This document shows, piece by piece, positions 34,236 through 52,163 of a stretch of DNA of 64,000 nucleotides. This DNA is from a virus, in IMG/VR virus record IMGVR_UViG_3300042475_001686, positions 1 to 64,000 of that record; one strand, written 5' to 3'. The notes beneath the pieces are model-generated. The model searched no databases and was not told the origin of the DNA. It was given only the letters and a program-made list of their open reading frames with translations. Each line of letters begins with the position of its first letter. The first letter of the stretch is position 1. A program made the position numbers and the translations under genes.

Positions 34236-34264
34236 AGTCCTGAGCATGACTACTAAAACTGCTC
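34236..34264 (+). ncRNA. 3'-UTR H-type pseudoknot motif, copy 1
   Basis: AGTC-CTGAGCAT-GACT-ACTAAAAC-TGCTC. Confidence 0.7.
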
Positions 34265-34331
34265 ACTTGACTTTCTAACTGAAAAATGTTAGACTATAAA
34301 TAACCCAAAACCCATAAGAAAGGAAAACAAA

Positions 34332-34754
34332 ATGGCAAGAAGCCAAAAAGCAATTAGCGTGAAAATCGCTACGACTAAAGTTATCAAGGCTTTAGAAACT
34401 AAGTTAGCACAAATCCAAAAGGATAAGGCTAATCAAGCAACTAACGAGGAGAAGTTCAACAAGGCTCACGAAAAGTGGTCTAAAGATGTTGCTAAACTTT
34501 CTCTCAACGCTATCAACAAGGCAGAGGACTTATCTGCTAATCTAAGATACAATGGCATGGTTCATGTTTCTTTTGATTTGCCTAAAGGTTCTATTGACCT
34601 ACCTGCTCAACCTGAAAAGGATTTTGACACTTATCATGAGTGGCAATACAAAGAAATGGTAGATGAAATTGAGAACGCTATTCGTATTCTCAAGATGACA
34701 GATGAGGAAGTAGTTTCTACCTCAACTTACAACGCTATCGCCCGATACTTGTAA
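34332..34754 (+). CDS. hypothetical coiled-coil protein
   Basis: TTGACT..TAGACT promoter, AGAAAGGA RBS. Confidence 0.6.
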   Translation: MARSQKAISVKIATTKVIKALETKLAQIQKDKANQATNEEKFNKAHEKWSKDVAKLSLNAINKAEDLSANLRYNGMVHVSFDLPKGSIDLPAQPEKDFDTYHEWQYKEMVDEIENAIRILKMTDEEVVSTSTYNAIARYL

Positions 34755-34759
34755 TTCAC

Positions 34760-34786
34760 TCTCCTGAGCATGAGATAAAACTGCTC
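34760..34786 (+). ncRNA. pseudoknot motif, copy 2
   Basis: TCTC-CTGAGCAT-GAGA-TAAAAC-TGCTC. Confidence 0.7.
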
Positions 34787-34815
34787 ACTAACAAAATAGA
34801 CAGAAAGGAAAACAA

Positions 34816-34983
34816 ATGACACTCGGAGGCTACACTTATCAGGTAGGAGATTTATTTACTACCAGCAAGACAGGCGTTACAGGACGAATTGAAAAGTTTG
34901 TTCCACAAAGTAAAAATGTAACTCGTGTAATGCTTCGTTTGGCAAATGGTCAGCAACGATTTGCTATGGTAAAGACTTACTAA
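34816..34983 (+). CDS. 55-aa paralog of 34052..34219 (not in the ORF track)
   Basis: YQVGDLFTTSKTGVTGRI..TRVMLRLANGQQRF. Confidence 0.6.
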   Translation: MTLGGYTYQVGDLFTTSKTGVTGRIEKFVPQSKNVTRVMLRLANGQQRFAMVKTY

Positions 34984-35068
34984 TAAAATTGTTACTCTGT
35001 GTTCAAGGCAGACTGCGACACAAAATCGAATTGTGTTGATCTTTCTGCGAAAGTCCCTTGAGTAACCT

Positions 35069-35096
35069 TACTCCTGAGCATGAGTATAAACTGCTC
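35069..35096 (+). ncRNA. pseudoknot motif, copy 3
   Basis: TACTC-CTGAGCAT-GAGTA-TAAAC-TGCTC. Confidence 0.7.
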
Positions 35097-35224
35097 CCCT
35101 CTCAAAAAATCGCCTAGGCAATGTGATTTAAAACACAGTCCACTATGTGAGATAGTTTACGTTCTCGATTTGATTTCCCCTCTAAAAAATGTTATGATTA
35201 TATTATCTAAGAAAGGATAAATAA

Positions 35225-35488
35225 ATGATTAGCACCGCAATAGCAATACAAATGGCAACGCAGGACGCAGTTCATGACGAGAGTGTTATGGATTTGGCTT
35301 CTGCTCTTTATCATCACAGAAATGAAATGAGCGACGAGGACTTTGCTAAAGCAATGTTTATGTATTCTGCTCATCTATCAGCAATGACCGCTACTTTAGT
35401 TACTCATGCCTGCTTGACTGAAAGCCAACTAAATGATATGCTTGAAACAATAAAGGAAATGGATTCCATGGGAAAGGATATTGAATAA
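35225..35488 (+). CDS. hypothetical protein
   Basis: AGAAAGGA RBS. Confidence 0.55.
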   Translation: MISTAIAIQMATQDAVHDESVMDLASALYHHRNEMSDEDFAKAMFMYSAHLSAMTATLVTHACLTESQLNDMLETIKEMDSMGKDIE

Positions 35489-35928
35489 TGGAAACAACAG
35501 AAACCGTAGTACCCGAACACTACAACTCCAATCAACTCGTAACTTATAAGGTTATTGAGAATGGTGCCGCTACATATCCAACCGTAAAGGTTGTGGACCT
35601 TGAGTGGGACCTGTATCAGAATCGTTCTAATGCAGCCAGTCTGTCTCAATACATTAATAAAGTAAATCAGTTAGAGAATCGTCTTCCTGATTATCTTGAT
35701 ATGGATTCAGAAGATATTGTCTCTGATATCTGCAGCATTTTTGGATTCAACCCAACTAAGGAAATTGAATTCGAGGCAACAGCCACAATTACTGGTCGTG
35801 TACTTGTACCACTTAGTGATTTAGCAAACTTTGATATCGACGACATAGACTTAACCGTTTATGCAGATTCACATTCACACGACGTTGAAGTTGATGTAGA
35901 AGTTGACCACATCTCTCGTGTAGACTAA
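35488..35928 (+). CDS. acidic hypothetical protein
   Basis: Translationally coupled to the upstream gene. Confidence 0.55.
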   Translation: METTETVVPEHYNSNQLVTYKVIENGAATYPTVKVVDLEWDLYQNRSNAASLSQYINKVNQLENRLPDYLDMDSEDIVSDICSIFGFNPTKEIEFEATATITGRVLVPLSDLANFDIDDIDLTVYADSHSHDVEVDVEVDHISRVD

Positions 35929-36009
35929 TAAATTTCTTGGCCTTCATGAAAGGGGCCAAGATCTGCAAGCATTGCTCCTCTTTCATCCTTTCTTTAGGGA
36001 GCATGCAAG

Positions 36010-36038
36010 GGACCTGAGCACGTCCACGTAAACTGCTC
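36010..36038 (+). ncRNA. pseudoknot motif, copy 4
   Basis: GGAC-CTGAGCAC-GTCC-ACGTAAAC-TGCTC. Confidence 0.7.
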
Positions 36039-36173
36039 TTTAAAAATTGCCTAGCCCGCAAAATCTTATTTTGTCAAATTTACGGCGTGTCGGGACATTT
36101 ACGTACCAGGATTTGCAATTGTCAGAGGGTTATGCTAAGATTGATAAATCACTTACAGAAAGGACAAAAAATA

Positions 36174-37190
36174 ATGGCGCATGAATTAGAAACGCAAAAT
36201 GGCGTTGCTTCTTTCGCATCATTCCGTGAACCTGCTTGGCATGGTCTTGGCACAGTATTCACGGAAGAAAAAACAACAGCAGAAATGTTATCTGCTGCTA
36301 ATCTAAACAATTGGAATGTTCGTCTTGAGGACGTAAATGTTCCATCTCACTTATCGTCAGATAAATCTTATCAATATGTTGTTCGCACTAACCCTACGGA
36401 TAACACACAGACCGATATTCTCGGTGTTGTTGGTGAGCGTTATCATGTTTTACAGAATGAAGATTTATTCTCATTCGGTGATAATATTCTTGACGGCGGA
36501 GGTCGTTGGGAAACTGCTGGCTCTATTCGTGGAGGTCGTGTTGTATTCGGTTCTCTTGCTCTTGAGCGTGAAACTGTATTAGACCCAAATGGTGTTGCGG
36601 ATAAGGTCAAAACTTATCTTCTCATCAATACATCACATGACGGCTCTATTGCTATTCAAGCAAGTATAACACCTGTTCGTGTTGTATGCGCTAACACTCT
36701 AAACCTTGCTCTTGGCTCTAAGCGTGGGCGTAATGCTATCAAGCAATCTTTCAAGATTCGCCACACACAGACCGCTAATGGTAAAGTTCAAATTGCTCGT
36801 GAGGCTCTTGGTCTTGCTAATGCTTACATGGACGCTTTCGACATCATGGCTAAACAAATGATTGAGAAAGAAATCACAGCGCAACAGTTCAATGATATTG
36901 TTCTCGCTGCGTATCCTAAGCCTGATGAAGAAAAGAAGGGCGCACTTACTCGTTGGACTAACAAGGTTGATGTTATCAATGACATCTACACAGGTGAGTT
37001 CAATGGCATGATTGCTGGCAATGCGTGGGGTGCTTTCAATGCTCTTACTGAACGCCTTGATTGGCATCGTTCTGCTCGTGGTGGAAATACTGAGGCAATG
37101 CTCGCTGCTGCTTCTGGTTTTGACGCAACAATTACAGCAGAAAAAAATCGCTTGCTAACTGTTGTAAAAAATACTTTGCAACTCGCATAG
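36174..37190 (+). CDS. DUF932-family phage/plasmid protein
   Basis: MAHELE..PAWHGLG..ETAGSIRGGRVVF..NTSHDGS..TPVRVVCANTL. Confidence 0.8.
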   Translation: MAHELETQNGVASFASFREPAWHGLGTVFTEEKTTAEMLSAANLNNWNVRLEDVNVPSHLSSDKSYQYVVRTNPTDNTQTDILGVVGERYHVLQNEDLFSFGDNILDGGGRWETAGSIRGGRVVFGSLALERETVLDPNGVADKVKTYLLINTSHDGSIAIQASITPVRVVCANTLNLALGSKRGRNAIKQSFKIRHTQTANGKVQIAREALGLANAYMDAFDIMAKQMIEKEITAQQFNDIVLAAYPKPDEEKKGALTRWTNKVDVINDIYTGEFNGMIAGNAWGAFNALTERLDWHRSARGGNTEAMLAAASGFDATITAEKNRLLTVVKNTLQLA

Positions 37191-37194
37191 CAAA

Positions 37195-37222
37195 ATTTCC
37201 TGAGCATGAAATAAAACTGCTC
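37195..37222 (+). ncRNA. pseudoknot motif, copy 5
   Basis: ATTTC-CTGAGCAT-GAAAT-AAAAC-TGCTC. Confidence 0.7.
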
Positions 37223-37336
37223 AATTTTTATTTTTCAATTTGCAGATCATAACAAAAAATGCCTAGCAAAACCGACAAATCGGACATTGTATTTTTGTAA
37301 ATATTTTATTACGTAGCACTTGCTTTTTTTGCTGGA

Positions 37337-37552
37337 TTGTGGGATAATAAATATATGACAATAGACGAACTAACAACCCACATATTTAAAATGCGTAATG
37401 GTTTGGAAGAAGACCTACGCAATCTTGCTGATGAAATGGAAGCACTTGACCCTGCTGCTAAAGACTTTGCTGACCTTGACTTTGAATATAATTTTATTAA
37501 TGGACAGGTAGCGGCATTCAATTACGTACTTACTAAGATAGGCCTACAATGA
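37337..37552 (+). CDS. hypothetical protein (real start probably MTIDEL)
   Basis: ORF follows a TTGCTT..GATAAT promoter. Confidence 0.45.
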   Translation: MWDNKYMTIDELTTHIFKMRNGLEEDLRNLADEMEALDPAAKDFADLDFEYNFINGQVAAFNYVLTKIGLQ

Positions 37553-37752
37553 GCAGACTGTACACCATTGATGAATTAGTTACAGAGATCTATGAAGATA
37601 ACCTATCTCATTTTGATGACAGAGACACATCGGATGACTGTGATTGTCAGATCCATACTACCATTAGGACTATTGTGCAATATTGGGAGTAACTTGACAT
37701 ACCCCTGACATTTTGCTAAAATTGCATTACGAACCCAACAGAAAGGACCCCA

Positions 37753-38487
37753 ATGCCCAATTGGTGCTACAACTATCTTGACATATCAGGTGACGAAACC
37801 CTGATTGCAGATATCAAACGACAACTCAACAAACCATTTGTAAAAGACCATGATTCATGGAATGCTACAACTGGACAAATGGAAGTATCTCAAACTACTT
37901 ACCCTAATCCTGTGTTTGCATTTCATAATATATATAATCATAGACAAGACGGTATTTCAGACGAGGAATATATCAAGCAACCTGACCATACCCTGCCTTT
38001 AGAGGAATCTCTTATGTTCAAGGGTAATCATTGGTACGACTGGAATGTTCGCAATTGGGGAACCAAATGGGACGTTGCTGTTCACGATAACGATAAGTAT
38101 CCTGATACTGAGTTATATGAGGAGAGCACTACAGTTCTTGGATATAAATTCAATACCGCTTGGTCTCCACCTATTCAGGCTATAACTAAACTATCAGAAC
38201 AATATCCTACTCTCAACTTCAATCTATCTTATGAAGAAGAAACAGGTTGGGGTGGGGAAGTTACATTGCTTAATGGTTTTATCACTACCGTTGAGGAATA
38301 CGAGAACAAGTGTCGTGACTGTGATGAACTTAACAGTCTTGAGTATTGTGAGAATGACTGCGGTGAGATATGTAATGTATGTCACTATATGGGCGAGGCT
38401 GACCTTGACTGTGTTGCAGAATGTCAGGACCACAAGGTATACTTGGATGAAAAGCATGTACCCGACTATAGATTGGAAAAGGCATAA
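37753..38487 (+). CDS. DUF1281/YubB-like phage protein with Cys-rich tail
   Basis: MPNWCYN..WYDWNVRNWGTKWD..FNTAWSPP. Confidence 0.7.
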   Translation: MPNWCYNYLDISGDETLIADIKRQLNKPFVKDHDSWNATTGQMEVSQTTYPNPVFAFHNIYNHRQDGISDEEYIKQPDHTLPLEESLMFKGNHWYDWNVRNWGTKWDVAVHDNDKYPDTELYEESTTVLGYKFNTAWSPPIQAITKLSEQYPTLNFNLSYEEETGWGGEVTLLNGFITTVEEYENKCRDCDELNSLEYCENDCGEICNVCHYMGEADLDCVAECQDHKVYLDEKHVPDYRLEKA

Positions 38488-38771
38488 TGGAAATATCACC
38501 TACCGTGCTCGATGAGCGTTTACAAAAGTTAGTTAATCTTGGTGTTGAAGGTATCGACATCATGCACGGACAACTAAAGAATATGATGTATGAGGCTGAA
38601 GCAGAACTACGCATGGCCCAAGAGGTAGAGGAAGAAAACGACTATTCCGACGCCATGGAATCAATGGAACGTAAATATTGGGAGGGATATACAGACGCAC
38701 TTGCACTTTGCTACGGTTTGACGTATGATATATCTTTCGCTATTAAACAAAAGGAGACAGACAATGCTTAA
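38487..38771 (+). CDS. hypothetical protein
   Basis: Coupled ORF. Confidence 0.5.
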   Translation: MEISPTVLDERLQKLVNLGVEGIDIMHGQLKNMMYEAEAELRMAQEVEEENDYSDAMESMERKYWEGYTDALALCYGLTYDISFAIKQKETDNA

Positions 38772-39099
38772 GACAGATAAGTTAATACTAATAGGACAGT
38801 TTGCAGTAGACAGTGGTCAAGCCATTATTGGAGACCCATGCTATTTAGATGAGTGGAAAAACTGGGACAGAGAAGTAGATAACTTTGACGACCATGTTAA
38901 TAGAGTTGGTGAGTATGGCTACCTCGGTGCTTGCAACGCTACCATTACCAAGGGCTTTGGTGAATTAGGAAATCAAGCAGTAGCATTTTCTACTGGCTAT
39001 GGTGACGGTTTATATCCAGTTTATGCCCATATTAATGAGGACGGCAGAGTTGGAATGGTTGTAATCGATTTTACAGGAGAGTATCTTGATGATGAATGA
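38764..39099 (+). CDS. DUF4241-like protein
   Basis: VDSGQAIIGDPCY..STGYGDGLYPVY. Confidence 0.6.
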   Translation: MLKTDKLILIGQFAVDSGQAIIGDPCYLDEWKNWDREVDNFDDHVNRVGEYGYLGACNATITKGFGELGNQAVAFSTGYGDGLYPVYAHINEDGRVGMVVIDFTGEYLDDE

Positions 39100-39170
39100 T
39101 TGGATCCAATTGACATTGCCGCTGGAATTTGATACCATTAACATAAACCCTACTACAGAAAGGACTCCTA

Positions 39171-39530
39171 ATGGGAGCACGTTGTAATTTCGTATTTAAA
39201 CAATCAGAGGACCAGGCTGTAACCCTATACAGTCACTGGGACGAAAGCCATATGTATGAACTGCTGGCAGCAGCGCTTGGACATGCAATGCCACGTATTG
39301 AAATGGGTGATATCCCGTATGCGACTCGAATGGCTATTAGTTATATTATTAAAGAATCTATTCTGGATGAGACAGGATATGGAATTTATGCCATGGACCC
39401 GTCAGACCAAGGATTCTTGGACCATCCAATCACCATTGATTTCACTGACATGACAGTTGGTGAGGGTGAGGCCTGGCATTCCATTAATGATTTTATTAAC
39501 TACAATCTTGTGACGACGGTCACTAAATAA
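39171..39530 (+). CDS. conserved phage protein
   Basis: MGARCN..LYSHW; AGAAAGGA RBS. Confidence 0.55.
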   Translation: MGARCNFVFKQSEDQAVTLYSHWDESHMYELLAAALGHAMPRIEMGDIPYATRMAISYIIKESILDETGYGIYAMDPSDQGFLDHPITIDFTDMTVGEGEAWHSINDFINYNLVTTVTK

Positions 39531-39609
39531 AGCGAAGACTGGGTACCTTCGCTTGTTGCCAGGGGGGCAGGTTCGACTGTCTACGGACTTGCCTCCCACA
39601 TCTTTTTTT
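39530..39609 (+). terminator. tandem hairpins ending in a T-run
   Basis: AAGCGAAG/CTTCGCTT, then GGGGGGCAGGTTCG/CGGACTTGCCTCCC, then T7. Confidence 0.55.
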
Positions 39610-39632
39610 GATACAATCTATAAGGAGGAACT

Positions 39633-39878
39633 ATGGCTTACAGTGTTAGACGAGCACCACAGAATACCAAAGAAATACAAGTAGCACAGAGAATAGCAAA
39701 GATAATCAACGAAGACATGGGTCTAAACCTTGAGGCTGTTGGCTATCATTTGGTGAGAAACCACCCACCAATTGTATGGCACCGCCTTGAAGTTCTTGCC
39801 TTGACAGCAGGGGAAGAACATGATAAACTTATGTCAGACTATTTAGGAGAACAACATGTCGGTACCCTTTTCGGATAA
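39633..39878 (+). CDS. hypothetical protein
   Basis: AAGGAGG RBS. Confidence 0.5.
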   Translation: MAYSVRRAPQNTKEIQVAQRIAKIINEDMGLNLEAVGYHLVRNHPPIVWHRLEVLALTAGEEHDKLMSDYLGEQHVGTLFG

Positions 39879-40146
39879 GTGCGGGATTTTAGGTCAGTTC
39901 TGGTTTGAATACAGAGATGACGAAAAACTCAAAGAGTTCATTTCTTATAATGACATTGGATTGCCTTTGTCATGGTTTATTGCTACGGGAGTGGTAACAC
40001 CAAACCCTATGGCAGAGGACTATGTAAATGAAACTTTCAATCTATTCTTGGCAGCATTAGAATTGTCAGAGGAAGAAATTGAGGGTTTGGATAGCCTAAA
40101 CGAAATCCTTGAAATCGTAGAAGCCAAGCAAGAGGACGAAGACTAA
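39856..40146 (+). CDS. hypothetical acidic protein
   Basis: AGGAG RBS. Confidence 0.5.
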   Translation: MSVPFSDKCGILGQFWFEYRDDEKLKEFISYNDIGLPLSWFIATGVVTPNPMAEDYVNETFNLFLAALELSEEEIEGLDSLNEILEIVEAKQEDED

Positions 40147-40189
40147 AAATCTAAGTCCCCCTTGCGGGGCCGCCTAGGTAGATATCTAG

Positions 40190-41083
40190 AAACCATATCA
40201 AACCACAAACCATAAAACCATTTTACGAATGTATTACGAACCATTGTAAATTTTTCCCAGAAAGATTACGATCCAAACCATATTTTCCCCAAACCATATA
40301 GCATAATATTTTTGGTTTGTCAAACCTTCAAGCCATAGTGTATGATTGTTTGTATAGTACTAGGGGTATTACGATGTCTTTTATATACCCCGCCGTTTTT
40401 TAAAGACATTACGAACGCCGATTTCTTCCCCCCTCCAGAAAGTTTGGCGGGAATAAACGGGAGTATAATAATTATATGAGTCCCCGTCACTTTTCAAAGA
40501 TGTATCAAAACAAAAGTCAACACAGACATGATCAGCAATCTGACTGGGACTCTTTTACAAAAGACATGACGGTTTTGACTGGTATGTTATACTCAATTGC
40601 AAAGGCACCTCTCAAACCATTCATCCCTGCCTTCTACAAAACGGCGGGAGAAGTTAAAAAAGATTACGAACCTCTCTATAATCCCCCTATAAAGGAATAA
40701 CAAACCATATTTCCTGGTTTTAAAACATTTTAAAAAGTATTACGAACTTATTGGAATTTTTCCTGGATATTTGGCAATTTTCATCCAAAATAGATTACGA
40801 ACCCTATTGACAAACCATGGTTTTGGATGTATAATGCCCAAACCTTATATGATGGTTTGACAATATCGGGCATATATGGTATGAGGGTTTGTGAGGTTTG
40901 AAGATATTGGGTGTGAGGGTTTGTGAGGTTTGGGATTACGAACGCCATCTATAAAAACGTTCCATTCACCACTATCCTCCACTTCACTCCACTTTAACCC
41001 TATCCAATAATATAATCAGTAAGATTTATCTGTGGATAACTTGTGGATAACTAATGTCAAACCGATGATAACCCTGTGGATAA
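40190..41083. repeat. iteron-like TTACGA and AAACC repeats plus three DnaA boxes (origin candidate)
   Basis: Nine TTACGA copies at 40223-40936; TGTGGATAA at 41031, 41042 and 41075. Confidence 0.6.
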
Positions 41084-41203
41084 CTCTGTCTTTTCCCATC
41101 CACAAACAGTACAAAAATAGATTATCTTGGTGTCATCTGCATGGGTACTAAATCTATGTAAATGCATTGGGTAATTATAAAACCATTATTTGCGACGGTA
41201 TAT

Positions 41204-41722: not shown

Positions 41723-41844
41723 ACAAACCCTATCTGTAGAGTTTAATTATAACATAGGCCATATTAGAGATATTAACCCCTATTGCTCGTTTAGAGCATA
41801 AGAGGGTTTGTTATTCTATTTTCCGCCGAACTTGAAAGATGATA

Positions 41845-42642: not shown

Positions 42643-42696
42643 TTACATATTATAGCACTAAAAATAATATATTTTATACTATGATATAATCTTTGT

Positions 42697-43485: not shown

Positions 43486-43504
43486 GTTTACTTGGGTTCT
43501 ATAA

Positions 43505-44044: not shown

Positions 44045-44264
44045 ACTATTAGATGGTACAGAGGTAGATAATTACGATCACCCAATTGATCTTATTATTC
44101 ATACCAGAGCACCAGGTAAGTGGAAGTTGATTGATATGGAAACAGGAGAAGAGTATCTTGGCTCTATGATGGAACATCCCGACTACGGAGAAAAACTGAG
44201 GGCTAAGGTTATGATCTGTAAAATAGGCTCATGGGTAAAAACAAAAATGTCAGGTAAAAAATGA
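44025..44264 (+). CDS. hypothetical protein
   Basis: TRAPGKWKLIDMETGEEY; related to 45218..45382. Confidence 0.5.
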   Translation: MNMSKRKLLDGTEVDNYDHPIDLIIHTRAPGKWKLIDMETGEEYLGSMMEHPDYGEKLRAKVMICKIGSWVKTKMSGKK

Positions 44265-45217: not shown

Positions 45218-45382
45218 ATGAGGAAACAAGTTGAATTTACAGAAATGTCTGAAGAGACTGTGATTACATTAAGAACTAACTGTCCTGAAAAATATTTACT
45301 CGTTGATAGAGAGACTGGAAATGTTTTTGTTGCAAGAGAAACTGGAGAATGGGAGTTGATTCGTAATGGATCTATTCGATGA
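45218..45382 (+). CDS. 54-aa paralog of 44025..44264 (not in the ORF track)
   Basis: TNCPEKYLLVDRETGNVF. Confidence 0.45.
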   Translation: MRKQVEFTEMSEETVITLRTNCPEKYLLVDRETGNVFVARETGEWELIRNGSIR

Positions 45383-45707
45383 TTCTATTGTAGAGCATAA
45401 GTCTTTGCCACCATTGCGATGGATTGCAAATTTTTCTGGATCTATTGCATCCAGAGGTTTGTTGGAGATTTCTTATATGGAAGATGCAGGCTACACTGGC
45501 TGGAAATATAAACTAAATTGTTTTCTATGGGATAAATTTTGGCCGTTATATGCAAAATATGGTACAACATATAGACTAAGGATGGACTTGTCTGGCAAAG
45601 GTTGGGATGATTACGATGAAGATGGTGTCCCATATTGGGAGAAGTGGGATCTTTGGGATTATGAAGATGAAGAAACAGGCGACGGCTTTAGGATTATTAA
45701 AAAATGA
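45366..45707 (+). CDS. hypothetical protein
   Basis: ORF with GGGAG RBS. Confidence 0.45.
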   Translation: MDLFDDSIVEHKSLPPLRWIANFSGSIASRGLLEISYMEDAGYTGWKYKLNCFLWDKFWPLYAKYGTTYRLRMDLSGKGWDDYDEDGVPYWEKWDLWDYEDEETGDGFRIIKK

Positions 45708-45734
45708 AAACAACAATAAAGGAGAATAAATAAT

Positions 45735-45926
45735 ATGCAATGTGGATGTGGCTTTTCAACTGAATATCCTACATGTAATGGAACTCATAAAGTTATAAAG
45801 AGTGTTAAAGATAAAATTATTTCTGAAATAGAACAAATACCTCTTGAAAGCAACGGAATGCAGTTAAATGCATTAGGCATGAGAATGCTTGTAATTGATA
45901 TTATTAAAAAGGTTAAAGGTGTCTAA
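45735..45926 (+). CDS. CDGSH iron-sulfur domain protein
   Basis: CGCGFSTEYPTCNGTH. Confidence 0.65.
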   Translation: MQCGCGFSTEYPTCNGTHKVIKSVKDKIISEIEQIPLESNGMQLNALGMRMLVIDIIKKVKGV

Positions 45927-46176
45927 CTGGGTCTGTCCCTGTAATGGCTGTAAGAAGGCACAGAAGGTCATTATAGACCAGATCGTAGAGGAGTATAGGT
46001 CTTGTCCTAACCTTGTAGAGTCTGAAGATAAACTGTTTTGTTATACATGGTGGAGACACGATGATTGCGAAAGACTAAGACAGTTATTATATAAGATTAC
46101 GAAGAATGATCGATATACCCTGCCAGAAATAAAACCATCAAATGATACAATTGATATATCAAAAGGATTGGAGTAA
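45895..46176 (+). CDS. Cys-rich hypothetical protein
   Basis: WVCPCNGC; start uncertain. Confidence 0.4.
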   Translation: MILLKRLKVSNWVCPCNGCKKAQKVIIDQIVEEYRSCPNLVESEDKLFCYTWWRHDDCERLRQLLYKITKNDRYTLPEIKPSNDTIDISKGLE

Positions 46177-46182
46177 AGTATA

Positions 46183-46842
46183 ATGTCAGCATTTCCAAAA
46201 ATAATTTGGCAAACCCATAAATGGGATTACGAAGATCTTCCAGATATCTACAAAAATACAAGCAAAACCTGGCAAGTTATGAATCCTGATTGGGAATATA
46301 GATATGTTCCTAATAGTCAGATGAGATCATATATTGAAAAACTTAATAACAAACAAATATTAAACTTTTTTGATAGAAATAACTCTCCATTAAATCAAGC
46401 AGATGTGTGGAGAGAGGTAATGGTTTATGAACATGGTGGAATATGGGCAGATATGGATTCTGTATGCTTGTTTCCAATTGATAAGGTTATTGAAAAGAAT
46501 CCAGATAAAGAAATGATTTGTATGTCTCCCGTCGTAAAATTTAGAATGGATGAAGACAATAACTATCAACCAATAGGGGTTGAGGATGGCATACAAAGAC
46601 TTATATCTGGAAAGGAATATGGTTATTGGATATCTAATGCAGCCTTTCTTGGTAAAAAACATAATAAAGTTTCAACTGAAATATTTAAAGCAATGACTGA
46701 GTTTTGGGGATTTAGAGAGTCTTCGTTTATGGGTATGAGAGCAGAACTATATGATAAATATCATGATGATATGTCATTAGATTTAATATGTGCCTTTCAT
46801 GATGGCATGTTTAATGATAGAAATTATCAATCTAAACAATAA
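46183..46842 (+). CDS. glycosyltransferase, GT32/OCH1-like (DXD); paralog of 23454..24155
   Basis: FPKIIWQTH..QADVWR..GGIWADMD. Confidence 0.85.
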   Translation: MSAFPKIIWQTHKWDYEDLPDIYKNTSKTWQVMNPDWEYRYVPNSQMRSYIEKLNNKQILNFFDRNNSPLNQADVWREVMVYEHGGIWADMDSVCLFPIDKVIEKNPDKEMICMSPVVKFRMDEDNNYQPIGVEDGIQRLISGKEYGYWISNAAFLGKKHNKVSTEIFKAMTEFWGFRESSFMGMRAELYDKYHDDMSLDLICAFHDGMFNDRNYQSKQ

Positions 46843-46922
46843 TACGGCGGTACTTGACAATCTGCCTTGCCTTGTTCTATAATTAGTATGTAAGCAAACA
46901 ACTCAAACAGAAAGACTTTACA

Positions 46923-47735
46923 ATGAAAAAACTTATCGCTATTATTTTTGCAATCGTTTTTACTGCAACCCCTATATCTCATGCAGATATTATTCCAGAA
47001 AAACCAATTTTTGACCCTTCGGAACATTGTGTCGTCGACCCCTTAACAGAAACTGTAATTAGCGTTGATAAAAAGTTTGATAATGGAAGTCTTTTAAAAA
47101 AATACGGAATAAAGATTTTATATCCTGGAGTTCAAAAAATACTCACAACAGATATTTTAAAATATCAGCAAGCATTACAAGAATATTCTACTTGGAGTTC
47201 AAACTTTGTAATTCAGTTTAAAATTTTGCTGCCAGAAAATATTTATGAAAATAATCAATGTGGTATGGAAAAATATAGATATGAACAGTCTATTGTAGAG
47301 TACAACACACCAGACGGAACCTGTACTAATTTTTGGTTATATCCAAATAAAACAAAATATAAGTATGAGGTAGTTGGTGAGTCTCACAGACTTATCACAA
47401 CAAGAAAATTGCTAGAGTCTAACTCTAAATTAAATGCTATAGGAGAAAGAGAGTTTTATCCAAATGCTATACTAAAACTTGAGCCTAATAATAAGTTTGA
47501 TAGATATGCTGTCATGGTTTTAATTAACAATAAGCATGTAGGATATGTTCCAGCAGACTTTGCTAAATATATGACACAATATATAAAGTCTACTAAAAAA
47601 AGTCAAATTACTGTCCCAGCCTGTATGGGTTCTGCGGGTGGTTGGCCTCAAGTAAATCTTAATATGGATCCATTTTTAAAATCTATTAAAAAAACAATTA
47701 TTGCATGGAGAGATGGTACAAGAACAGATAGATAA
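46923..47735 (+). CDS. signal-peptide protein with C-terminal HIRAN-like domain
   Basis: VVGESH..LKLEPNNKFDRYAVMV..VGYVP. Confidence 0.6.
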   Translation: MKKLIAIIFAIVFTATPISHADIIPEKPIFDPSEHCVVDPLTETVISVDKKFDNGSLLKKYGIKILYPGVQKILTTDILKYQQALQEYSTWSSNFVIQFKILLPENIYENNQCGMEKYRYEQSIVEYNTPDGTCTNFWLYPNKTKYKYEVVGESHRLITTRKLLESNSKLNAIGEREFYPNAILKLEPNNKFDRYAVMVLINNKHVGYVPADFAKYMTQYIKSTKKSQITVPACMGSAGGWPQVNLNMDPFLKSIKKTIIAWRDGTRTDR

Positions 47736-47744
47736 TAGGTTTAA

Positions 47745-47818
47745 GGAGCAGTAGCCAAGTTGGTCAAGGCCCCGAACTCATAATTCGGTTATCGTAGGTT
47801 CAAGTCCTACCTGCTCTA
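47745..47818 (+). tRNA. tRNA with CAT anticodon (elongator Met or Ile2)
   Basis: Cloverleaf; CCGAA-CT-CAT-AA-TTCGG; lacks initiator features. Confidence 0.85.
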
Positions 47819-47822
47819 CTTT

Positions 47823-47895
47823 GCCCTTGTAGCCCAGTGGTAGAGGCACACGACTTAAAATCGTGCAAGCGTTGGTTCGAATCCAACCAGGGGCA
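47823..47895 (+). tRNA. tRNA-Leu(TAA), short variable loop
   Basis: CACGA-CT-TAA-AA-TCGTG; GGTTCGAATCC. Confidence 0.85.
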
Positions 47896-47899
47896 CTAA

Positions 47900-47972
47900 A
47901 CCTCTGTAACTCAGTGGATAGAGTAGCGGACTTCTAATCCGTTTGTCGTTGGTTCAAATCCAATCAGAGGTG
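47900..47972 (+). tRNA. tRNA-Arg(TCT)
   Basis: GCGGA-CT-TCT-AA-TCCGT. Confidence 0.9.
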
Positions 47973-47987
47973 CTACAATAGTAATAT

Positions 47988-48060
47988 TGATCTGTAGTTC
48001 AGTTGGTAGAACACTCGACTGTTAATCGAGATGTCGCAGGATCGAGACCTGCCAGATCAG
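47988..48060 (+). tRNA. tRNA-Asn(GTT)
   Basis: CTCGA-CT-GTT-AA-TCGAG; atypical T-loop ATCGAGA. Confidence 0.8.
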
Positions 48061-48115
48061 CGATACAGACACGGTAGGAATGGGAATAGGAAGACCTATC
48101 GTGTCTGTATCATAT

Positions 48116-48189
48116 GGTCCGTTAGTTCAGTTGGTTAGAACGCTACCCTGTCACGGTAGAGGTCGTCGGTTCAAGTCCGATACGGATCG
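48116..48189 (+). tRNA. tRNA-Asp(GTC)
   Basis: CTACC-CT-GTC-AC-GGTAG. Confidence 0.9.
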
Positions 48190-48193
48190 CATT

Positions 48194-48265
48194 GGCTCCA
48201 TCGTCTATCGGTTAGGACATCAGATTTTCAATCTGGGAAGACGGGTTCGATTCCCGTTGGGGCTA
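48194..48265 (+). tRNA. tRNA-Glu(TTC)
   Basis: TCAGA-TT-TTC-AA-TCTGG. Confidence 0.9.
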
Positions 48266-48308
48266 CGAGTTTGATATAATGGAATAACTACTAGTAGAAG
48301 GAAATGTA

Positions 48309-50393
48309 ATGTCAGAAGCAAAGTGCCCATTTACGGGTAACAGTTTAAATAATGAAGGAACATATAATAAAGATTGGTGGCCAAACCAATTAGACTTGTC
48401 TCCTTTAAGAAAGAATTCATCTAAGTCAGATCCAATGGGAGAAGACTTTGATTATGCTGAAGAGTTTAATAGTTTAGATCTTGATGCAGTCAAGAAGGAT
48501 ATTGATACACTTCTAACTACCTCGCAAGATTGGTGGCCTGCTGATTACGGCAACTATGGACCACTATTCATTCGCATGGCATGGCATAGCGCAGGAACAT
48601 ATAGAACAACTGATGGTCGTGGTGGTGCTGGAGAAGGTCTACATAGATTTGCCCCACAAAACTCATGGCCAGATAATGGTAATTTAGATAAGGCTCGTAG
48701 ACTTTTATGGCCTATCAAACAAAAATATGGAAAGAAGATTTCATGGGCAGACCTCATGATTCTTGCTGGTAATGTTGCTCTTGAAAACATGGGCTTTAAA
48801 ACTTTCGGTTTTGGTGGAGGTCGTGTAGATGTTTGGGAAGCAGACGATACATATTGGGGTAGCGAAAAGGAATGGCTTGCAGACAACCGTTATAGCGGTG
48901 ATCGTGAGTTAGAGAATCCTCTTGCTGCTGTACAAATGGGTTTGATTTATGTCAACCCTGAAGGACCAAACGGTAATCCAGATCCATTGTTATCTGCACG
49001 AGATATCCGTGAGACATTCGCAAGAATGGCAATGAATGATGAAGAGACCGTTGCTCTTATTGCTGGTGGACATGCATTCGGTAAAGCACATGGTGCTGGA
49101 GATCCCAAGAATGTTGGACCAGAACCAGAAGGCGCATCTATTGAAGAGCAGGGCCTTGGCTGGAAGAATTCATTTGGTAAGGGTAATGCAGAAGATACCA
49201 TTACAAGTGGTATTGAAGGTGCATGGACTCCTACACCAACTAAGTGGGATAACTCCTACTTAAAGATTCTATTTAAGTATGATTGGAAGCAGGTAAAGTC
49301 TCCTGCTGGTGCGACACAATGGATTCCTACAGATGAATCTGCTGTTAATTTAGTACCAGATGCACATGTTGAAGGAAAGTTTCATGCTCCAGTGATGACA
49401 ACAGCAGATTTGGCTCTCAAGTTTGATCCAGAATACGAAAAGATTTCAAGAAGATTCTTAGAAGACTTTGACTATTTCTCAGATCAATTTGCTCGTGCTT
49501 GGTTTAAACTAACACACAGAGATATGGGTCCTGTTGCTCGTTATCTTGGCAAAGAAGTTCCTACAGAAGAACTAATTTGGCAAGATCCAGTACCAAGCAA
49601 TGTTAATATGAATATTGATGTAGAGTCTATCAAGAAGGCTATTAAGTCTTCTGGTATACCACTATATTATTTCGTATATACTGCGTGGTCTTCTGCATCT
49701 ACTTTCCGTAAAACAGATAAGCGTGGTGGAGCAAATGGTGCACGTATTCGCTTGGAACCTCAAATAAGTTGGGACTCCAACAATAAAGAAGTTATCTCCA
49801 CTGTAATTAATTATTTAGAAACATTGCAGAAGGAATACTCAGCATCATTAGCAGACTTAATTGTTCTTGCTGGATGCGCTGCTATCGAAAAGGTATCTGA
49901 AGAAAAGGTTGTAGTACCATTTACACCTGGAAGAACAGATGCAACACAAGAACAAACAGATGTGGAATCATTTAGTGTTCTTGAACCGATTGCAGATGGC
50001 TTTAAGAATTATTTAAAAGATGGAGTTATAACTCCTTCAGAAGTTCTTTTAGTTGAAAAGGCAAATATGCTAAACCTAACACCAGTAGAGATGGTTGTTC
50101 TATTGAGTGGAATGAGAACATTAATGACAAACAGACTAAGCAATGGTTATTTGATCAGTTTGTTATCTGGACAAATTACCTGGAAACAAACATCTATCAA
50201 TAATTTTGAAGGATATGTTGGTGGTGATCTTATAGGTAACGCAAGTCGTGTTGATCTTATTTTCGGATCTAATTCAGAACTTCGTGCTATTGCAGAAGTC
50301 TATGCTTCTGACGATGCAGAACAAAAGTTTATGGATGATTTTGCTCAGGCATGGAATAAGGTAATGATGCTTGATAGATTTGATGTAAGATAG
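48309..50393 (+). CDS. katG: catalase-peroxidase
   Basis: [43 protein letters not shown]; two-domain architecture. Confidence 0.97.
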
Positions 50394-50401
50394 TAGGGGT
50401 T

Positions 50402-50473
50402 GCCTCCTTAACTCAGGGGTAGAGTACCCGCCTTGTAAGCGGGTTGTCGTAGGTTCAAATCCTACAGGAGGCT
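50402..50473 (+). tRNA. tRNA-Thr(TGT)
   Basis: CCCGC-CT-TGT-AA-GCGGG. Confidence 0.9.
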
Positions 50474-50489
50474 CTGATATAATTTGGTT

Positions 50490-50645
50490 ATGGATTTAGA
50501 AAAAGAAATTAAAGATATATTATTTAATATTGGTAAAGAAATTCAGATCCATAAATTAGTTGATGGTAATCTTATTATAGAAATAGATTATGATAAGTAT
50601 ACTATTGAAATGATGGAACTAATGAAAAAGTATTTATCTAATTAG
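50490..50645 (+). CDS. 51-aa hypothetical protein (leaderless; not in the ORF track)
   Basis: TGATATAAT 6 nt upstream of ATG. Confidence 0.45.
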   Translation: MDLEKEIKDILFNIGKEIQIHKLVDGNLIIEIDYDKYTIEMMELMKKYLSN

Positions 50646-50764
50646 ACTTATTCTTTTTGCTGTACTCGCCATATTTACCAAGTACTGCTTTGACTGTTCC
50701 ATCTTTTCTTAGACGAACAATATTTCCATCTTTAATTTGTATTGGATTAAATTTATCGCTTCTT

Positions 50765-51913
50765 TTATACTTGCCAGAAGACATTGCCACTACCACGCTT
50801 TCTATTACTTTGTTTTTGAATAGGATTAAGTATATCTGAAAATACTTTTTTATCTTTTTCAGAGTTTACTATTCTCCTTGACCAAGAATAGCCAGCATCC
50901 CCACCCCATGCTAACCACATAATGTACCCATTAGAAGGATTAGATTGATTTGCCCAATCTTTACCCTTTTTATCTACCTCGTGACGAGAAAAATAAGAAT
51001 ACATTCTTTTAACTGTGCTTAGTGATAATGTTTCTCCTCGTGCTAATTGACCTGCACGAGTCCAACCTACTGATGTACCTGCACCTTTTGCTTTACCTTG
51101 TTCTTTAAATCTAATTGCTTTACGTGCTGCTGCACGAGCACCTGCTGGCGGAGAATATCCCTCAGCCTTCGATACCGAATCTGTTTCATAAACAACAGTA
51201 TCATCATCTTCCCAAAGATCATCAGCCTTTTCAGCAGGAACACAGTTAGGAACTGGTCTTCCATTTGCTCCTGGTTTCATACCACGCTGTACATAGCCAT
51301 CCCAACATGGTGCCTGTTTGTTTACATTTGCACAACAATCTGATTTCATTTCACCAGATTGACATTGTGGGCATTGATCACATGTTACATCTAATTCTTT
51401 GCACATAGGGCAACCGCAGCCTTCGTATGCTTTTTTAACATCATCTTCTTCATCGTCTTCTTCATCATCATTTGAAGAGTTGCCAGAAATTGACTTATCC
51501 ATTTCATCATCTGACATCGTATCTGGCAGAATCATTACATCTGCTGCTTTTGCACCAACGAAGTATTCCGTCTCTTCTAATTCGCCCTCTTCCATTTCAA
51601 ACAGTTGAATTAAAATAGCAGGCTCTTCTGCACTTGCTTCAAGAGCATATTCAGATCCTGGAGTTCCAAGCATTCCCTCTGTCATAACGTGAACAACACG
51701 ACCAACATACATTTCTTCTTCATGTGGAGCCATAACCATATCGCCTTCTTTAACCATTGCCTTGCCTATATTGCCCTCAGAACGGTTTATAGCGTAAATC
51801 TGTGCTGCAGCCTCAGAACGAGTCTTATGGCAGCCCATAACCTCTCCTGTGTCCTTTAAAGCGGGGTATCCAGAACAACCATTGGACCCTTTAGCACCTA
51901 TACGATATGGCAT
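50765..51913 (-). CDS. multi-module probable head-associated protein
   Basis: GCHKTRSEAAAQIYAI, CWDGYVQRGMK..PNCVP, TVKRMYSYFSRHE..WLAWGGDAG modules. Confidence 0.55.
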   Translation of the reverse strand: MPYRIGAKGSNGCSGYPALKDTGEVMGCHKTRSEAAAQIYAINRSEGNIGKAMVKEGDMVMAPHEEEMYVGRVVHVMTEGMLGTPGSEYALEASAEEPAILIQLFEMEEGELEETEYFVGAKAADVMILPDTMSDDEMDKSISGNSSNDDEEDDEEDDVKKAYEGCGCPMCKELDVTCDQCPQCQSGEMKSDCCANVNKQAPCWDGYVQRGMKPGANGRPVPNCVPAEKADDLWEDDDTVVYETDSVSKAEGYSPPAGARAAARKAIRFKEQGKAKGAGTSVGWTRAGQLARGETLSLSTVKRMYSYFSRHEVDKKGKDWANQSNPSNGYIMWLAWGGDAGYSWSRRIVNSEKDKKVFSDILNPIQKQSNRKRGSGNVFWQV

Positions 51914-51951
51914 AATAAATAGTATACCATATTTTATGGTAAAATTAAGGC

Positions 51952-52131
51952 ATGAATCAACAACTAACTTCAGAACAGCAAGCAGAGATTATCGCCAATC
52001 AGATAATTCAGGCTACAAAAAATAGTATTATTAATAGACTACAGCCAGCATTTAACAAACTTGCTGAAGGTCATCATCATTTTGATCAGGCTCTTGCTGA
52101 CGCTATCATTACTGACATTAAAAACGCATAA
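51952..52131 (+). CDS. 59-aa hypothetical protein (leaderless; not in the ORF track)
   Basis: TGGTAAAAT 6 nt before ATG. Confidence 0.45.
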   Translation: MNQQLTSEQQAEIIANQIIQATKNSIINRLQPAFNKLAEGHHHFDQALADAIITDIKNA

Positions 52132-52136
52132 TAAAA

Positions 52137-52163
52137 GAGCAGTTTCTCCACATGCTCAGGTGG
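52137..52163 (-). ncRNA. pseudoknot motif, copy 6 (3' of hsp20)
   Basis: Minus strand CCAC-CTGAGCAT-GTGG-AGAAAC-TGCTC. Confidence 0.7.

Follow-up and report, generated by a model that had tools for sequence, protein, structure and literature searches.

A short covarying RNA pseudoknot placed behind stop codons in a freshwater phage and in many unrelated phages, and its possible role at message 3' ends

Six copies of the motif in a freshwater phage genome

The window, a stretch of 64,000 nucleotides, is part of a freshwater phage genome of 117,492 bp (117 kb) in which exactly six copies of a short RNA motif were found. The copies are singles, 310-1185 nt apart or 15 kb off, and a different gene precedes each. 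The parts of every copy, namely stem S1 (also P1), loop L1, stem S2 (also P2), an unpaired junction base and loop L3, are as follows, together with the score against covariance model R1 and the neighbouring features.

Copy 1, 34236..34264, plus strand, R1 46.7 bits: S1 AGUC 34236-39 / GACU 34248-51; L1 CU 34240-41; S2 GAGCA 34242-46 / UGCUC 34260-64; junction U 34247; L3 ACUAAAAC 34252-59. S1 starts 16 nt past the stop of ORF 34052-34219.
Promoter-like site, 34267-34295, next after copy 1.
Copy 2, 34760..34786, plus strand, R1 47.4 bits: S1 UCUC 34760-63 / GAGA 34772-75; L1 CU; S2 GAGCA 34766-70 / UGCUC 34782-86; junction U 34771; L3 UAAAAC 34776-81. S1 starts 5 nt past the stop of ORF 34332-34754, and 29 nt separate the end of the copy from the start at 34816.
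Weak terminator-like hairpin, 35016-35038, between the stop of ORF 34816-34983 and copy 3.
Copy 3, 35069..35096, plus strand, R1 43.7 bits: S1 UACUC 35069-73 / GAGUA 35082-86; L1 CU; S2 GAGCA 35076-80 / UGCUC 35092-96; junction U 35081; L3 UAAAC 35087-91. S1 starts 85 nt past the stop of ORF 34816-34983.
Copy 4, 36010..36038, plus strand, R1 38.4 bits: S1 GGAC 36010-13 / GUCC 36022-25; L1 CU; S2 GAGCA 36016-20 / UGCUC 36034-38; junction C 36021; L3 ACGUAAAC 36026-33. S1 starts 81 nt past the stop of ORF 35488-35928.
Copy 5, 37195..37222, plus strand, R1 49.5 bits: S1 AUUUC 37195-99 / GAAAU 37208-12; L1 CU; S2 GAGCA 37202-06 / UGCUC 37218-22; junction U 37207; L3 AAAAC 37213-17. S1 starts 4 nt past the stop of the phrog_1221 gene (gene end 37190).
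Copy 6, 52137..52163, minus strand, R1 39.7 bits: S1 CCAC 52163-60 / GUGG 52151-48; L1 CU 52159-58; S2 GAGCA 52157-53 / UGCUC 52141-37; junction U 52152; L3 AGAAAC 52147-42. S1 starts 21 nt past the stop of the Hsp20-like gene 52185-52604 (minus strand).

Regular-expression scans, a pattern search of the phage's own genome and model R1 agreed on a genome-wide count of six, R1 scoring the six copies at 38.4-49.5 bits and the next-ranked match in the whole genome at 11.8 bits. In the window, the pattern CTGAGCAN{4,16}AAACTGCT gave six matches, against none in each of 100 shuffles. Re-scanning returned the copies at the coordinates of the original prediction, with the P1 arms that it had read (AGTC/GACT, TCTC/GAGA, TACTC/GAGTA, GGAC/GTCC, ATTTC/GAAAT and CCAC/GTGG) and, in 6/6 cases, in the sense orientation downstream of a stop codon that it had described.

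Fold and covariation

Comparison of the copies showed that the motif folds as an H-type RNA pseudoknot of about 28 nt, with a covarying P1 and a P2 formed between the loop and a 3' segment. S1 consists of 4-5 bp of variable sequence with a C-G closing pair (119/123 copies), L1 of the 2 nt CU (88/92 S1-paired copies, in searches leaving L1 free) and S2 of the 5 bp GAGCA/UGCUC. One unpaired base (A, C or U) forms the junction, and the A-rich L3 ends in AAAC (41/43 copies, in searches leaving L3 free). The 8-nt loop has the consensus CUGAGCAH. P1 has a different sequence in each of the six genomic copies and pairs in all of them, as it does in most copies from other viral contigs. P2 does not vary among the six genomic copies, so that the window alone is insufficient to prove it; its support comes from other viral contigs. 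Directed scans of these contigs showed that, at the middle G-C pair of P2, the Watson-Crick partner was kept in 38 of the 40 P1-paired copies with a changed loop base (A-U 35, C-G 3), and that every one of the 81 copies changed at the C-G pair remained pairable (U-G 62, U-A 19). Versions of S2 in other copies were GAACA/UGUUC (38), GAGUA/UACUC (20), GACCA/UGGUC (4) and GGACA/UGUCC (3).

In an alignment of 127 rows, 92.0% of the cells paired, as compared to 76.2% in shuffles, none of 500 of which reached 92.0%, and sliding the 3' partners by 1-3 columns lowered pairing to 27-42%. The element works as RNA, as indicated by G-U wobbles (62 U-G at one pair, 5 G-U at another) that pair solely on the sense strand. 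For the six genomic copies, nested folding gave only -4.7 to -7.8 kcal/mol and chose P2 alone; P1, proven by covariation, needs the knot for its formation.

A search of the whole window with Rfam 15 at gathering thresholds matched seven tRNAs and no family for the motif, and at E<=10 no match was obtained over 34000-37500, preQ1-I (RF00522) and Pistol (RF02679) included. This agrees with the original view that the motif belongs to no named family. Literature text searches found no paper describing it, and the pseudoknot family merits an Rfam entry.

Occurrence in phages and metagenomic contigs

The motif is common to very many unrelated phages, where it is placed just behind a stop codon. Cultured phages of Arthrobacter, Mycobacterium, Synechococcus and Paracoccus carry it, as do a crAss-like phage and a Microviridae genome of 5,035 nt with 8 annotated features. 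Single copies were found in unrelated phages, and other phages have several each; E. coli phage flopper and Bacillus phage Page bear imperfect copies with S1 or S2 mismatches. The proposed search of actinophages yielded the motif in Mycobacterium phage Labelle and Arthrobacter phage Amigo, but it was absent from Streptomyces phages BillNye and NootNoot, which are the closest cultured relatives when DNA polymerase is compared. Autographiviridae-type phages encode their own RNA polymerase, and one member of this group, Paracoccus phage ParKuw1, has the motif, as do phages that use the host RNA polymerase. Contigs of metagenome-assembled genomes (MAGs) with the motif are labelled as CPR bacteria, Firmicutes, Actinobacteria, Cyanobacteria and Proteobacteria, plus one Methanobrevibacter MAG.

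Placement relative to genes, tRNAs and terminators

The surroundings of 248 unique copies were surveyed using crude ORF calling. Four copies lie inside a sense ORF of at least 100 aa. The nearest upstream ORF is in sense for 212 copies, and the nearest flanking ORFs are sense/sense for 158, sense/antisense (the end of a gene run) for 54 and antisense/sense for 13. The distance from stop codon to S1 shows a sharp onset at 4 nt, with 3 copies nearer and 13-17 copies at each of 4-9 nt. This placement points to a tie between the motif and the upstream gene. On the other side, the next sense start lies 21-40 nt from the end of the knot in 73 of the 248 copies, with a sharp lower limit near 19-20 nt, so that the motif may also have a role for the downstream cistron.

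In 24 of the surveyed copies a same-strand tRNA begins 0-28 nt after S2 (23 of these at 0-14 nt), and only two have a tRNA ending at most 60 nt upstream. Arthrobacter phage Amigo has the knot directly between its SSB gene and tRNA-Gly, and the blastn match stops 2 nt before the annotated tRNA. RNase P is the established enzyme of tRNA 5' processing; after its cut before an adjoining tRNA, the message would end in the knot followed by a short tail, split from the downstream RNA.

Terminator-like sites at most 120 nt downstream were observed at 8 of 164 motif-bearing gene ends and at 297 of 2798 control ends from the same loci, a modest depletion relative to a crude control set. None overlaps or adjoins any of the six genomic copies. 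Assembled metatranscriptome contigs join an ORF end to the motif (34754 to 37196 in X16, 34729 to 37196 in X18); since such contigs cannot reveal starts or ends, these joints show no more than a continuous run from the upstream ORF into the motif in RNA-library material.

A possible cap at the 3' end of the upstream message

Judging from its placement, the knot may be a self-contained cap shielding the 3' end of the upstream message, a reading that we favour with somewhat less than even confidence. Each repeat is transcribed within the message of the preceding gene and folds into the knot. The knot would act alone, needing no phage protein, and would form a structural cap where the upstream cistron ends. 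Long transcripts of the phage would undergo cleavage or trimming, by RNase P at copies adjoining a tRNA and elsewhere by other endonucleases or in read-through decay; 3'-to-5' exonucleases would halt at the knot, and the coding part of the upstream message would be kept. Loop and stem sequences may be conserved because of tertiary contacts that give stability to so small a fold. A dedicated phage partner is not likely, because single copies occur in unrelated phages and in Microviridae, and the motif is found in MAG contigs of many phyla. Among the functions that the original prediction had listed, a 3'-exonuclease block is the best fit to the placement data, from which it is proposed here.

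Several points count against this idea. A plain hairpin would also block many exonucleases, and a cap alone leaves the retention of the exact sequence across phyla unexplained. The many copies close to the next sense start, the modest size of the terminator depletion and the imperfect copies in flopper and Page weigh on the same side.

Phage T7 RNase III-site hairpins and E. coli REP elements are 3' stabilising structures in polycistronic messages. As a cap, the knot would do the same job, a structure between cistrons becoming a protective 3' end after processing. T7 hairpins and REP elements are long plain hairpins, belonging to one phage-host pair or to a host repeat family, whereas the phage motif is a 28-nt knot with one consensus across phages of many phyla and a putative stabilising role.

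If the knot fixes or shields RNA ends, phages would set individual message lifetimes within long transcripts, independently of any host's factors. A broader proposal is that the knot is a protein-free, host-independent and exoribonuclease-resistant structure, a prokaryotic counterpart of xrRNAs that serves as universal RNA-end punctuation in the polycistronic transcripts of phages of most bacterial phyla and of the ssDNA Microviridae; this is put forward tentatively, as a possibility well short of an even chance. If true, the knot would be the smallest exoribonuclease-resistant element known and the first in prokaryotic viruses, and nuclease-resistant viral RNA folds would extend from eukaryotic RNA viruses to phages. 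At about 28 nt, and appearing to act in cis in hosts from Actinobacteria to Cyanobacteria, it is a candidate portable transcript stabiliser for synthetic biology, testable in the cultured carriers Amigo, Labelle (M. smegmatis), Synechococcus phage S-EIVl and ParKuw1. For annotation, it cleanly marks where a gene ends, and on which strand, in the genomes of uncultured phages.

Alternative readings and comparison with known RNA elements

It is possible, if unlikely, that the knot is a roadblock acting from the 5' side, a small coremin-like xrRNA that stops a 5'-to-3' exonuclease (RNase J, for example), 5'-end-dependent scanning by RNase E or post-termination ribosomes, the downstream cistron being protected or insulated. 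The coremin motif (xrRNA-C) and its Watson-Crick variant xrRNA-WCC are found in plant, fungal and insect RNA viruses and, as described in passages of PMC10321173 and PMC10520033, resemble the phage motif in three ways: the hairpin is very short and its loop pairs with bases slightly farther on, the connecting loop is rich in A and includes UAAAC, and the size is about 20-30 nt. In the same passages, S2 of xrRNA-WCC is GAG/CUC, the same letters as the opening of the phage S2, and coremin is thought to be mechanically resistant without protein, as we propose for the phage motif. The sharply bounded distances to the next sense start would also suit such a roadblock. Against it, an antisense ORF lies downstream of 54 copies and a tRNA directly downstream of 24, where a cut by RNase P would free the knot from the tRNA, and antisense/sense contexts, which resemble 5' leaders, number only 13.

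The passages further give the coremin hp1 loop as YGAD (4 nt) or YGNNAD (6 nt; PMC10520033), whereas the second base of the phage loop is U and not G; coremin S2 has at most 3 bp or is non-canonical, whereas the phage S2 has 5 covarying bp; and coremin has an obligatory second hairpin (hp2) directly downstream, whereas a hairpin 0-4 nt after the phage S2 was seen in 77/246 copies and 69/246 shuffled flanks, with no enrichment. Having neither this loop consensus nor hp2, the motif was not assigned to coremin/xrRNA-C. Coremin is described there as stalling eukaryotic Xrn1 from the 5' side, whereas the position of the phage motif suggests a link with the 3' end of the gene before it, and a passage in PMC10321173 or PMC10520033 has it that BWYV-type knots do not stall Xrn1.

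Improbable, too, is a binding site for a conserved protein, probably the host's (a ribosomal protein, RNA chaperone or ribonuclease), that would tune the translation or decay of the neighbouring genes. Sequence-specific hairpin or knot operators are a known kind, as exemplified by the T4 gene 32 leader, and loop and S2 conservation, like that of the CU, AAAC and closing pair counted above, goes far beyond pairing needs. However, S2 is free to change, in the versions given above, while pairing holds; a partner encoded by the phage is unlikely in view of the single copies in unrelated phages and the Microviridae genome, and the presence of the motif in MAG contigs of many phyla means that a host partner would need to be nearly universal.

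In the tRNA-like structure of TYMV, RNase P cuts the pseudoknotted acceptor arm, and the enzyme's local preferences are U at -1, a G-C first pair and A after the 3' strand. If the motif were a processing signal imitating the acceptor arm of a tRNA, with an RNase P cut in L1 between U and G, it would present U at -1, the G-C first pair of S2 and the base after UGCUC, which is A in 70% of copies, and the universality of RNase P would suit the breadth of hosts. This is nevertheless very unlikely: the stacked helix is only 9-10 bp long and nothing in it corresponds to a T-loop, CCA after this A is not conserved (the following positions are C in 45%, then T in 44%), S2 and L3 are conserved more strongly than acceptor stems, and the signal would be redundant where a real tRNA sits 4-14 nt on.

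Little probability attaches to a transcription signal that would make RNA polymerase pause or terminate, or keep it from terminating, while the RNA emerges. Three genomic copies stand immediately before promoter modules and lack a nearby intrinsic terminator, and U-rich stretches come after two genomic copies, but over 82 copies no U-tract is conserved after S2 (T at 33-48% from +5 to +10). Moreover, many copies lie between two closely spaced genes of one strand, where a terminator would shut off the second gene, and the carriers include phages using the host RNA polymerase as well as the Autographiviridae member ParKuw1. The non-canonical terminator once suggested is not supported, given this variable tract and the many copies located about 20-40 nt before a same-strand start codon. 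Nor do the copies have the G+C-rich hairpin and immediate U-tract of an intrinsic terminator.

The preQ1-I aptamer and the pistol P1/pseudoknot core are similar to the motif in size and topology, and the motif's loops are nearly invariant, as might befit either a new ribozyme that cleaves itself or a riboswitch-like aptamer comparable to preQ1-I in size; such a small catalytic or ligand-sensing RNA has only the slimmest probability. PreQ1-I shares an H-type knot of about 34 nt, a 5-bp P1, a loop pairing with the 3' tail and an A-rich L3, but occupies 5' leaders of queuosine genes, whereas the phage motif stands behind the stops of unrelated genes, in several copies per phage. Sites behind such stops, before tRNAs and at the ends of gene runs are unlike the control of one pathway, Rfam gave no match even at E<=10, preQ1-I and pistol included, and there is no expression platform: no terminator is present, and, with about 20 nt or more to the start codon, the next RBS is left free. 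A preQ1-I riboswitch was rejected on its own account, as copies follow genes as unrelated as the Hsp20-like one and phrog_1221 and the covariance-model search at E<=10 was negative. Type III antitoxin RNAs form tandem arrays, with repeats of about 36 nt, immediately before the gene of a toxin endoribonuclease, and the ToxI-like mimicry first envisaged is not supported, the copies being dispersed singles behind different genes with no tandem array before a toxin gene.

In luteovirus-type knots, which total about 28 nt, S1 has about 5 bp, L1 has 2 nt, a single unpaired base forms the junction and L3 is A-rich with 4-7 nt. The phage motif has this compact H-type geometry (S1 4-5 bp, L1 CU, a 1-nt junction, L3 (N)AAAC), nearly identical to that of the -1 frameshifting pseudoknots of BWYV and PLRV as known generally and from passages of PMC10321173. 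Its S2 has 5 bp as compared to 3, no sequence relationship was seen, and it follows a stop codon, whereas luteovirus-type knots follow a slippery heptamer (5-8 nt, in an ORF overlap) and give a trans-frame product. A frameshift pseudoknot was rejected because no extended ORF runs through the motif, only 4 of the 248 surveyed copies being inside a long sense ORF, and the loop has UGA in one frame. The spacing from the ribosome is similar to that of luteovirus-type knots, the phage knot starting 4-9 nt after the A-site codon.

Six copies of the motif in the phage genome

The six copies of the original prediction were all present in the window, each exactly where it had been placed:

34236–34264, + strand, copy 1, starting 16 nt after the stop codon of the upstream ORF
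34760–34786, + strand, copy 2, 5 nt after the stop
35069–35096, + strand, copy 3, 85 nt after the stop
36010–36038, + strand, copy 4, 81 nt after the stop
37195–37222, + strand, copy 5, 4 nt after the stop
52137–52163, − strand, copy 6, 21 nt after the stop

They share the layout 5'-S1a / CU / GAGCA / Y / S1b / (N)AAAC / UGCUC-3', in which S1 is the outer stem, S2 the pairing of GAGCA with UGCUC, L1 the CU loop and L3 the A-rich loop. As had been claimed, S1 is variable yet always paired, its six different sequences being complementary in six of six copies, and all six lie in sense orientation downstream of a stop codon, matching the strand of their neighbours. The pattern CTGAGCAN{4,16}AAACTGCT matched six times in the window versus zero times in each of 100 dinucleotide-preserving shuffles. 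With a covariance model of the motif, the copies scored 38.4–49.5 bits and the next best match in the genome 11.8 bits; no seventh copy was found in the whole 117,492-bp genome by this model or by regular expressions allowing one mismatch per block. The genes upstream of the copies are unrelated to each other (small ORFs, a phrog_1221 protein, an Hsp20-like protein), and PHROG scans of the neighbouring genes revealed no RNA-binding or nuclease partner. Promoter-like hexamers occur downstream of copies 1 and 3, and copies 3–5 are each followed by a homologous promoter-upstream module.

A second repeat, AAAWYGCCTAG, occurs four times in the window, always on the + strand, versus 0.19 occurrences expected by chance:

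30959–30969, + strand, AAAWYGCCTAG repeat
35107–35117, + strand, AAAWYGCCTAG repeat
36044–36054, + strand, AAAWYGCCTAG repeat
37256–37266, + strand, AAAWYGCCTAG repeat

It opens homologous intergenic modules of about 100–150 nt, closed by promoter-like hexamers and an RBS, and three of the four repeats lie just 3' of pseudoknot copies 3, 4 and 5. This repeat may serve early promoters as an operator or UP-type site.

Covariation and fold

The covariance model was built from 85 copies with S1 as its only structure and searched against about 0.9 Mb of fetched viral loci; an alignment of the 127 matches with E ≤ 0.01 was then assessed for pairing across the full pseudoknot. In this alignment, for which S2 had been fixed in advance when most rows were selected, 92.0% of cells paired versus 76.2% in shuffles (none of 500 reached 92.0%), pairing dropped to 27–42% when partners were slid, and the covariation score was 0.406 versus 0.109 in shuffles. 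Covariation was heavy at four S1 pairs, and a fifth formed in about 41% of rows, so that S1 consists of 4 bp plus an optional fifth; its closing pair was C-G in 119 of 123 rows.

Because S2 was fixed when most rows were chosen, two directed scans were run in which the usual base was barred at one S2 position and its partner left free. When the middle G-C pair was altered, the 40 copies with a paired S1 carried A-U (35), C-G (3), A-G (1) or A-A (1); when the C-G pair was altered, all 81 such copies carried U-G (62) or U-A (19), none being unpaired. Matches lacking S1 pairing (70 and 38, respectively) followed no such rule. A descriptor scan over all viral loci added the S2 pairs AAGCA/UGCUU, GGACA/UGUCC, AGGCA/UGCCU and GGGUA/UACCC, and one copy contained an extra C-G pair within S2 (GAGCCA/UGGCUC). 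Combined, covariation proves the pseudoknot structure. U-G and G-U wobbles were abundant and would be C-A mismatches on the opposite strand; these sense-strand-only wobbles, together with the strict sense orientation of the copies, place function at the RNA level, and a DNA-level element was rejected on the same grounds.

In scans leaving the loops free, L1 was CU in 88 of 92 S1-paired copies and L3 ended in AAAC in 41 of 43, indicating that both loops are conserved in their own right. Nested folding of the six window copies was weak (−4.7 to −7.8 kcal/mol) and returned S2 alone, so S1 depends on the knot. Within 60 nt on each side, no further conserved sequence was found beyond a stretch rich in A upstream of S1 and an A following S2. 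Two copies from other viral contigs (L095:3082–3145, − strand; L084:6624–6672, + strand) have a whole extra hairpin inserted at the one-base junction between S2 and S1; the junction can therefore accommodate inserts while the flanking consensus is retained.

Placement relative to genes, tRNAs and terminators

Placement was analyzed for 248 unique copies using crude ORF calling (≥50 aa) and ARAGORN. Only 4 copies lay in sense, and 14 in antisense, within an ORF of at least 100 aa. The nearest upstream and downstream ORFs were sense/sense in 158 cases, sense/antisense in 54, antisense/sense in 13 and antisense/antisense in 4; the remainder were sense/none (10), none/sense (8) and none/antisense (1). 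Distances between the stop codon and S1 showed a sharp onset at 4 nt, with 3 copies nearer, 13–17 copies at each distance of 4–9 nt and a decay thereafter. In the ribosome, about 11 nt separate the first base of the P site from the mRNA entry (helicase) site, which makes 4 nt the nearest that a still-folded structure can approach a stop codon occupying the A site. Between S2 and the next sense start codon, distances begin at around 19–20 nt, roughly the reach of an initiating ribosome on its 5' side. Given both limits, the knot appears to be packed to the tightest spacing compatible with folding between translated genes. These results show the motif to be a family of RNA pseudoknots with conserved sequence and structure, belonging to gene 3' boundaries.

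A same-strand tRNA started 0–14 nt after S2 in 23 of the 248 copies and 28 nt after it in one more, and a tRNA ended within 60 nt upstream of only two. In the cultured Arthrobacter phage Amigo, the SSB gene, the knot and tRNA-Gly directly adjoin in that order. Terminator-like sites were found within 120 nt downstream of 8 of 164 motif-bearing gene ends versus 297 of 2798 control ends in the same loci, about half the rate. The window itself contains seven tRNA genes (47745–48265 and 50402–50473, + strand), six of them in one cluster; none of the seven is preceded by a pseudoknot copy, versus about 10% of copies elsewhere that directly precede a tRNA.

Distribution in other phages

An exact-pattern scan of IMG/VR yielded at least 117 loci. 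Among the 138 matches listed, 81 had at least four consecutive S1 pairs and 101 at least three, with many S1 sequences; the remaining matches look like chance. With a stricter pattern and one genome per prokaryote species, 30 of the 120 matches listed had at least four S1 pairs. Their contigs were labelled as Saccharibacteria and other CPR, Lachnospiraceae, Eubacteriales, Clostridium, Lacticaseibacillus, Eggerthellaceae, Anaerolineae, Calothrix, Polynucleobacter, Coxiellaceae, Hyphomicrobiales, Chitinophaga, Omnitrophica, Atribacterota, Aminicenantes and a Methanobrevibacter MAG, and probably derive from prophages or from phage contigs that had been binned. Short-query BLAST followed by the covariance model located copies in phages that are cultured or named:

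Good copies of the motif in cultured or named phages
Arthrobacter phage Amigo, 40.9 bits
Mycobacterium phage Labelle, 47.6 bits
Cyanophage S-RIM4, 39.8 bits
Paracoccus phage ParKuw1, 36.8 bits
Synechococcus phage S-EIVl, seven matches at E ≤ 0.05
crAss-like cr7_1, 37.7 bits
Microviridae sp. MW202581.1 (5,035-nt ssDNA genome), 1001–1026, 29.6 bits

The covariance search of actinophages suggested in the original prediction was thus positive for Amigo and Labelle and negative for the Streptomyces Stanwilliamsviridae phages BillNye and NootNoot, representing the closest cultured relatives of the source phage, in whose genomes no copy was found (best E-value 0.4). The Microviridae copy, located between a VP5-like gene and a small ORF preceding the major capsid gene, shows that the motif extends beyond tailed phages. 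In E. coli phage flopper and Bacillus phage Page the copies are imperfect and were not taken to prove that the motif functions in these hosts. Cultured S-EIVl offers a natural series of variants (L583–L587): two copies combine L1 = CC with AAGCA/UGCUU, a C-A mismatch interrupts S2 in one, and L3 ends in AAAG in one.

Comparison with known elements and proposed role

At gathering thresholds, only the seven tRNAs in the whole window matched Rfam 15, and at E ≤ 10 nothing matched in 34000–37500, which rules out preQ1-I, pistol and all other curated models; the impression that the motif belongs to no named family was thereby upheld. Text searches of the literature found no paper describing it, the only virus paper matching AAACUGCUC being unrelated. 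An IMG/VR-derived catalogue holds 8,495 unnamed candidate RNAs in its supplements (PMC10690425), and the motif may be among them. The motif is genuine, occurs widely and is uncatalogued.

The arrangement of the copies suggests, tentatively, a plausible function for the knot: it would act alone as a cap shielding the 3' end of the upstream gene's message. The strongest pointer comes from copies next to a tRNA: RNase P cleavage at the tRNA would sever the knot from everything downstream and leave it, with a few bases, as the mRNA 3' end. The same reading is favoured by the copies that close a run of genes and by how few terminators are present. If it is true, functional parallels would be T7 RNase III-site hairpins and REP elements.

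A roadblock on the 5' side, as in coremin xrRNA, seems unlikely. The phage motif resembles coremin and xrRNA-WCC in layout and letters, and lacks two defining features of coremin, its loop consensus and obligatory second hairpin (PMC10321173, PMC10520033). The Microviridae copy and the single copies in unrelated phages argue against a dedicated phage protein; that the knot instead binds a near-universal host protein is less likely again. The knot could also be read as an acceptor-arm mimic cleaved by RNase P, which we consider improbable. A transcription signal is improbable to the same degree; the non-canonical terminator once proposed was discarded, and no terminator-like site adjoins any copy within the window. 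A ribozyme or ligand sensor is the most remote of these readings, and a riboswitch was rejected, preQ1-I having the same size and a model and gene context unlike those of the motif. Luteoviral frameshift knots are closest in geometry; the phage motif differs in following stop codons without a trans-frame ORF, and a frameshift or readthrough signal was rejected for this reason. Mimicry of a ToxI-type antitoxin, also raised originally, was considered and dismissed.

The host phage

The source genome (117,492 bp, 36.7% G+C, rated complete), whose bases 1–64000 make up the window, encodes a portal, a protease, a DnaE-like polymerase and a tape measure protein, and the phage is a long-tailed siphovirus, the length of the last protein implying an exceptionally long tail:

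89850–98594 of the genome (L125:5850–14594), outside the window, − strand, tape measure protein of 2,914 aa

Its nearest cultured relatives, by tblastn with the phrog_1221 protein and the polymerase, are Streptomyces Stanwilliamsviridae phages (51–55% identity; 53–55% for the polymerase), and megablast of 34000–37400 against cultured phages gave no match. Fourteen lake or freshwater DNA runs contained at least 71% of the region's sampled words, indicating a freshwater phage, and 6–8% of the words were present in six metatranscriptome runs. Four of the metatranscriptome runs were aligned; they show RNA-library contigs that continue from the end of an ORF into a copy of the motif. These are assembled contigs, in which starts, ends, strand and level are unreadable and uncovered bins carry no weight. 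The window also carries auxiliary genes unusual for a phage, encoding a 514-aa protein matching the tryptophan halogenase PHROG family (55577–57121, − strand; E 2e-103) and a 355-aa protein with a weak match to a glycosyltransferase family (52670–53737, − strand).
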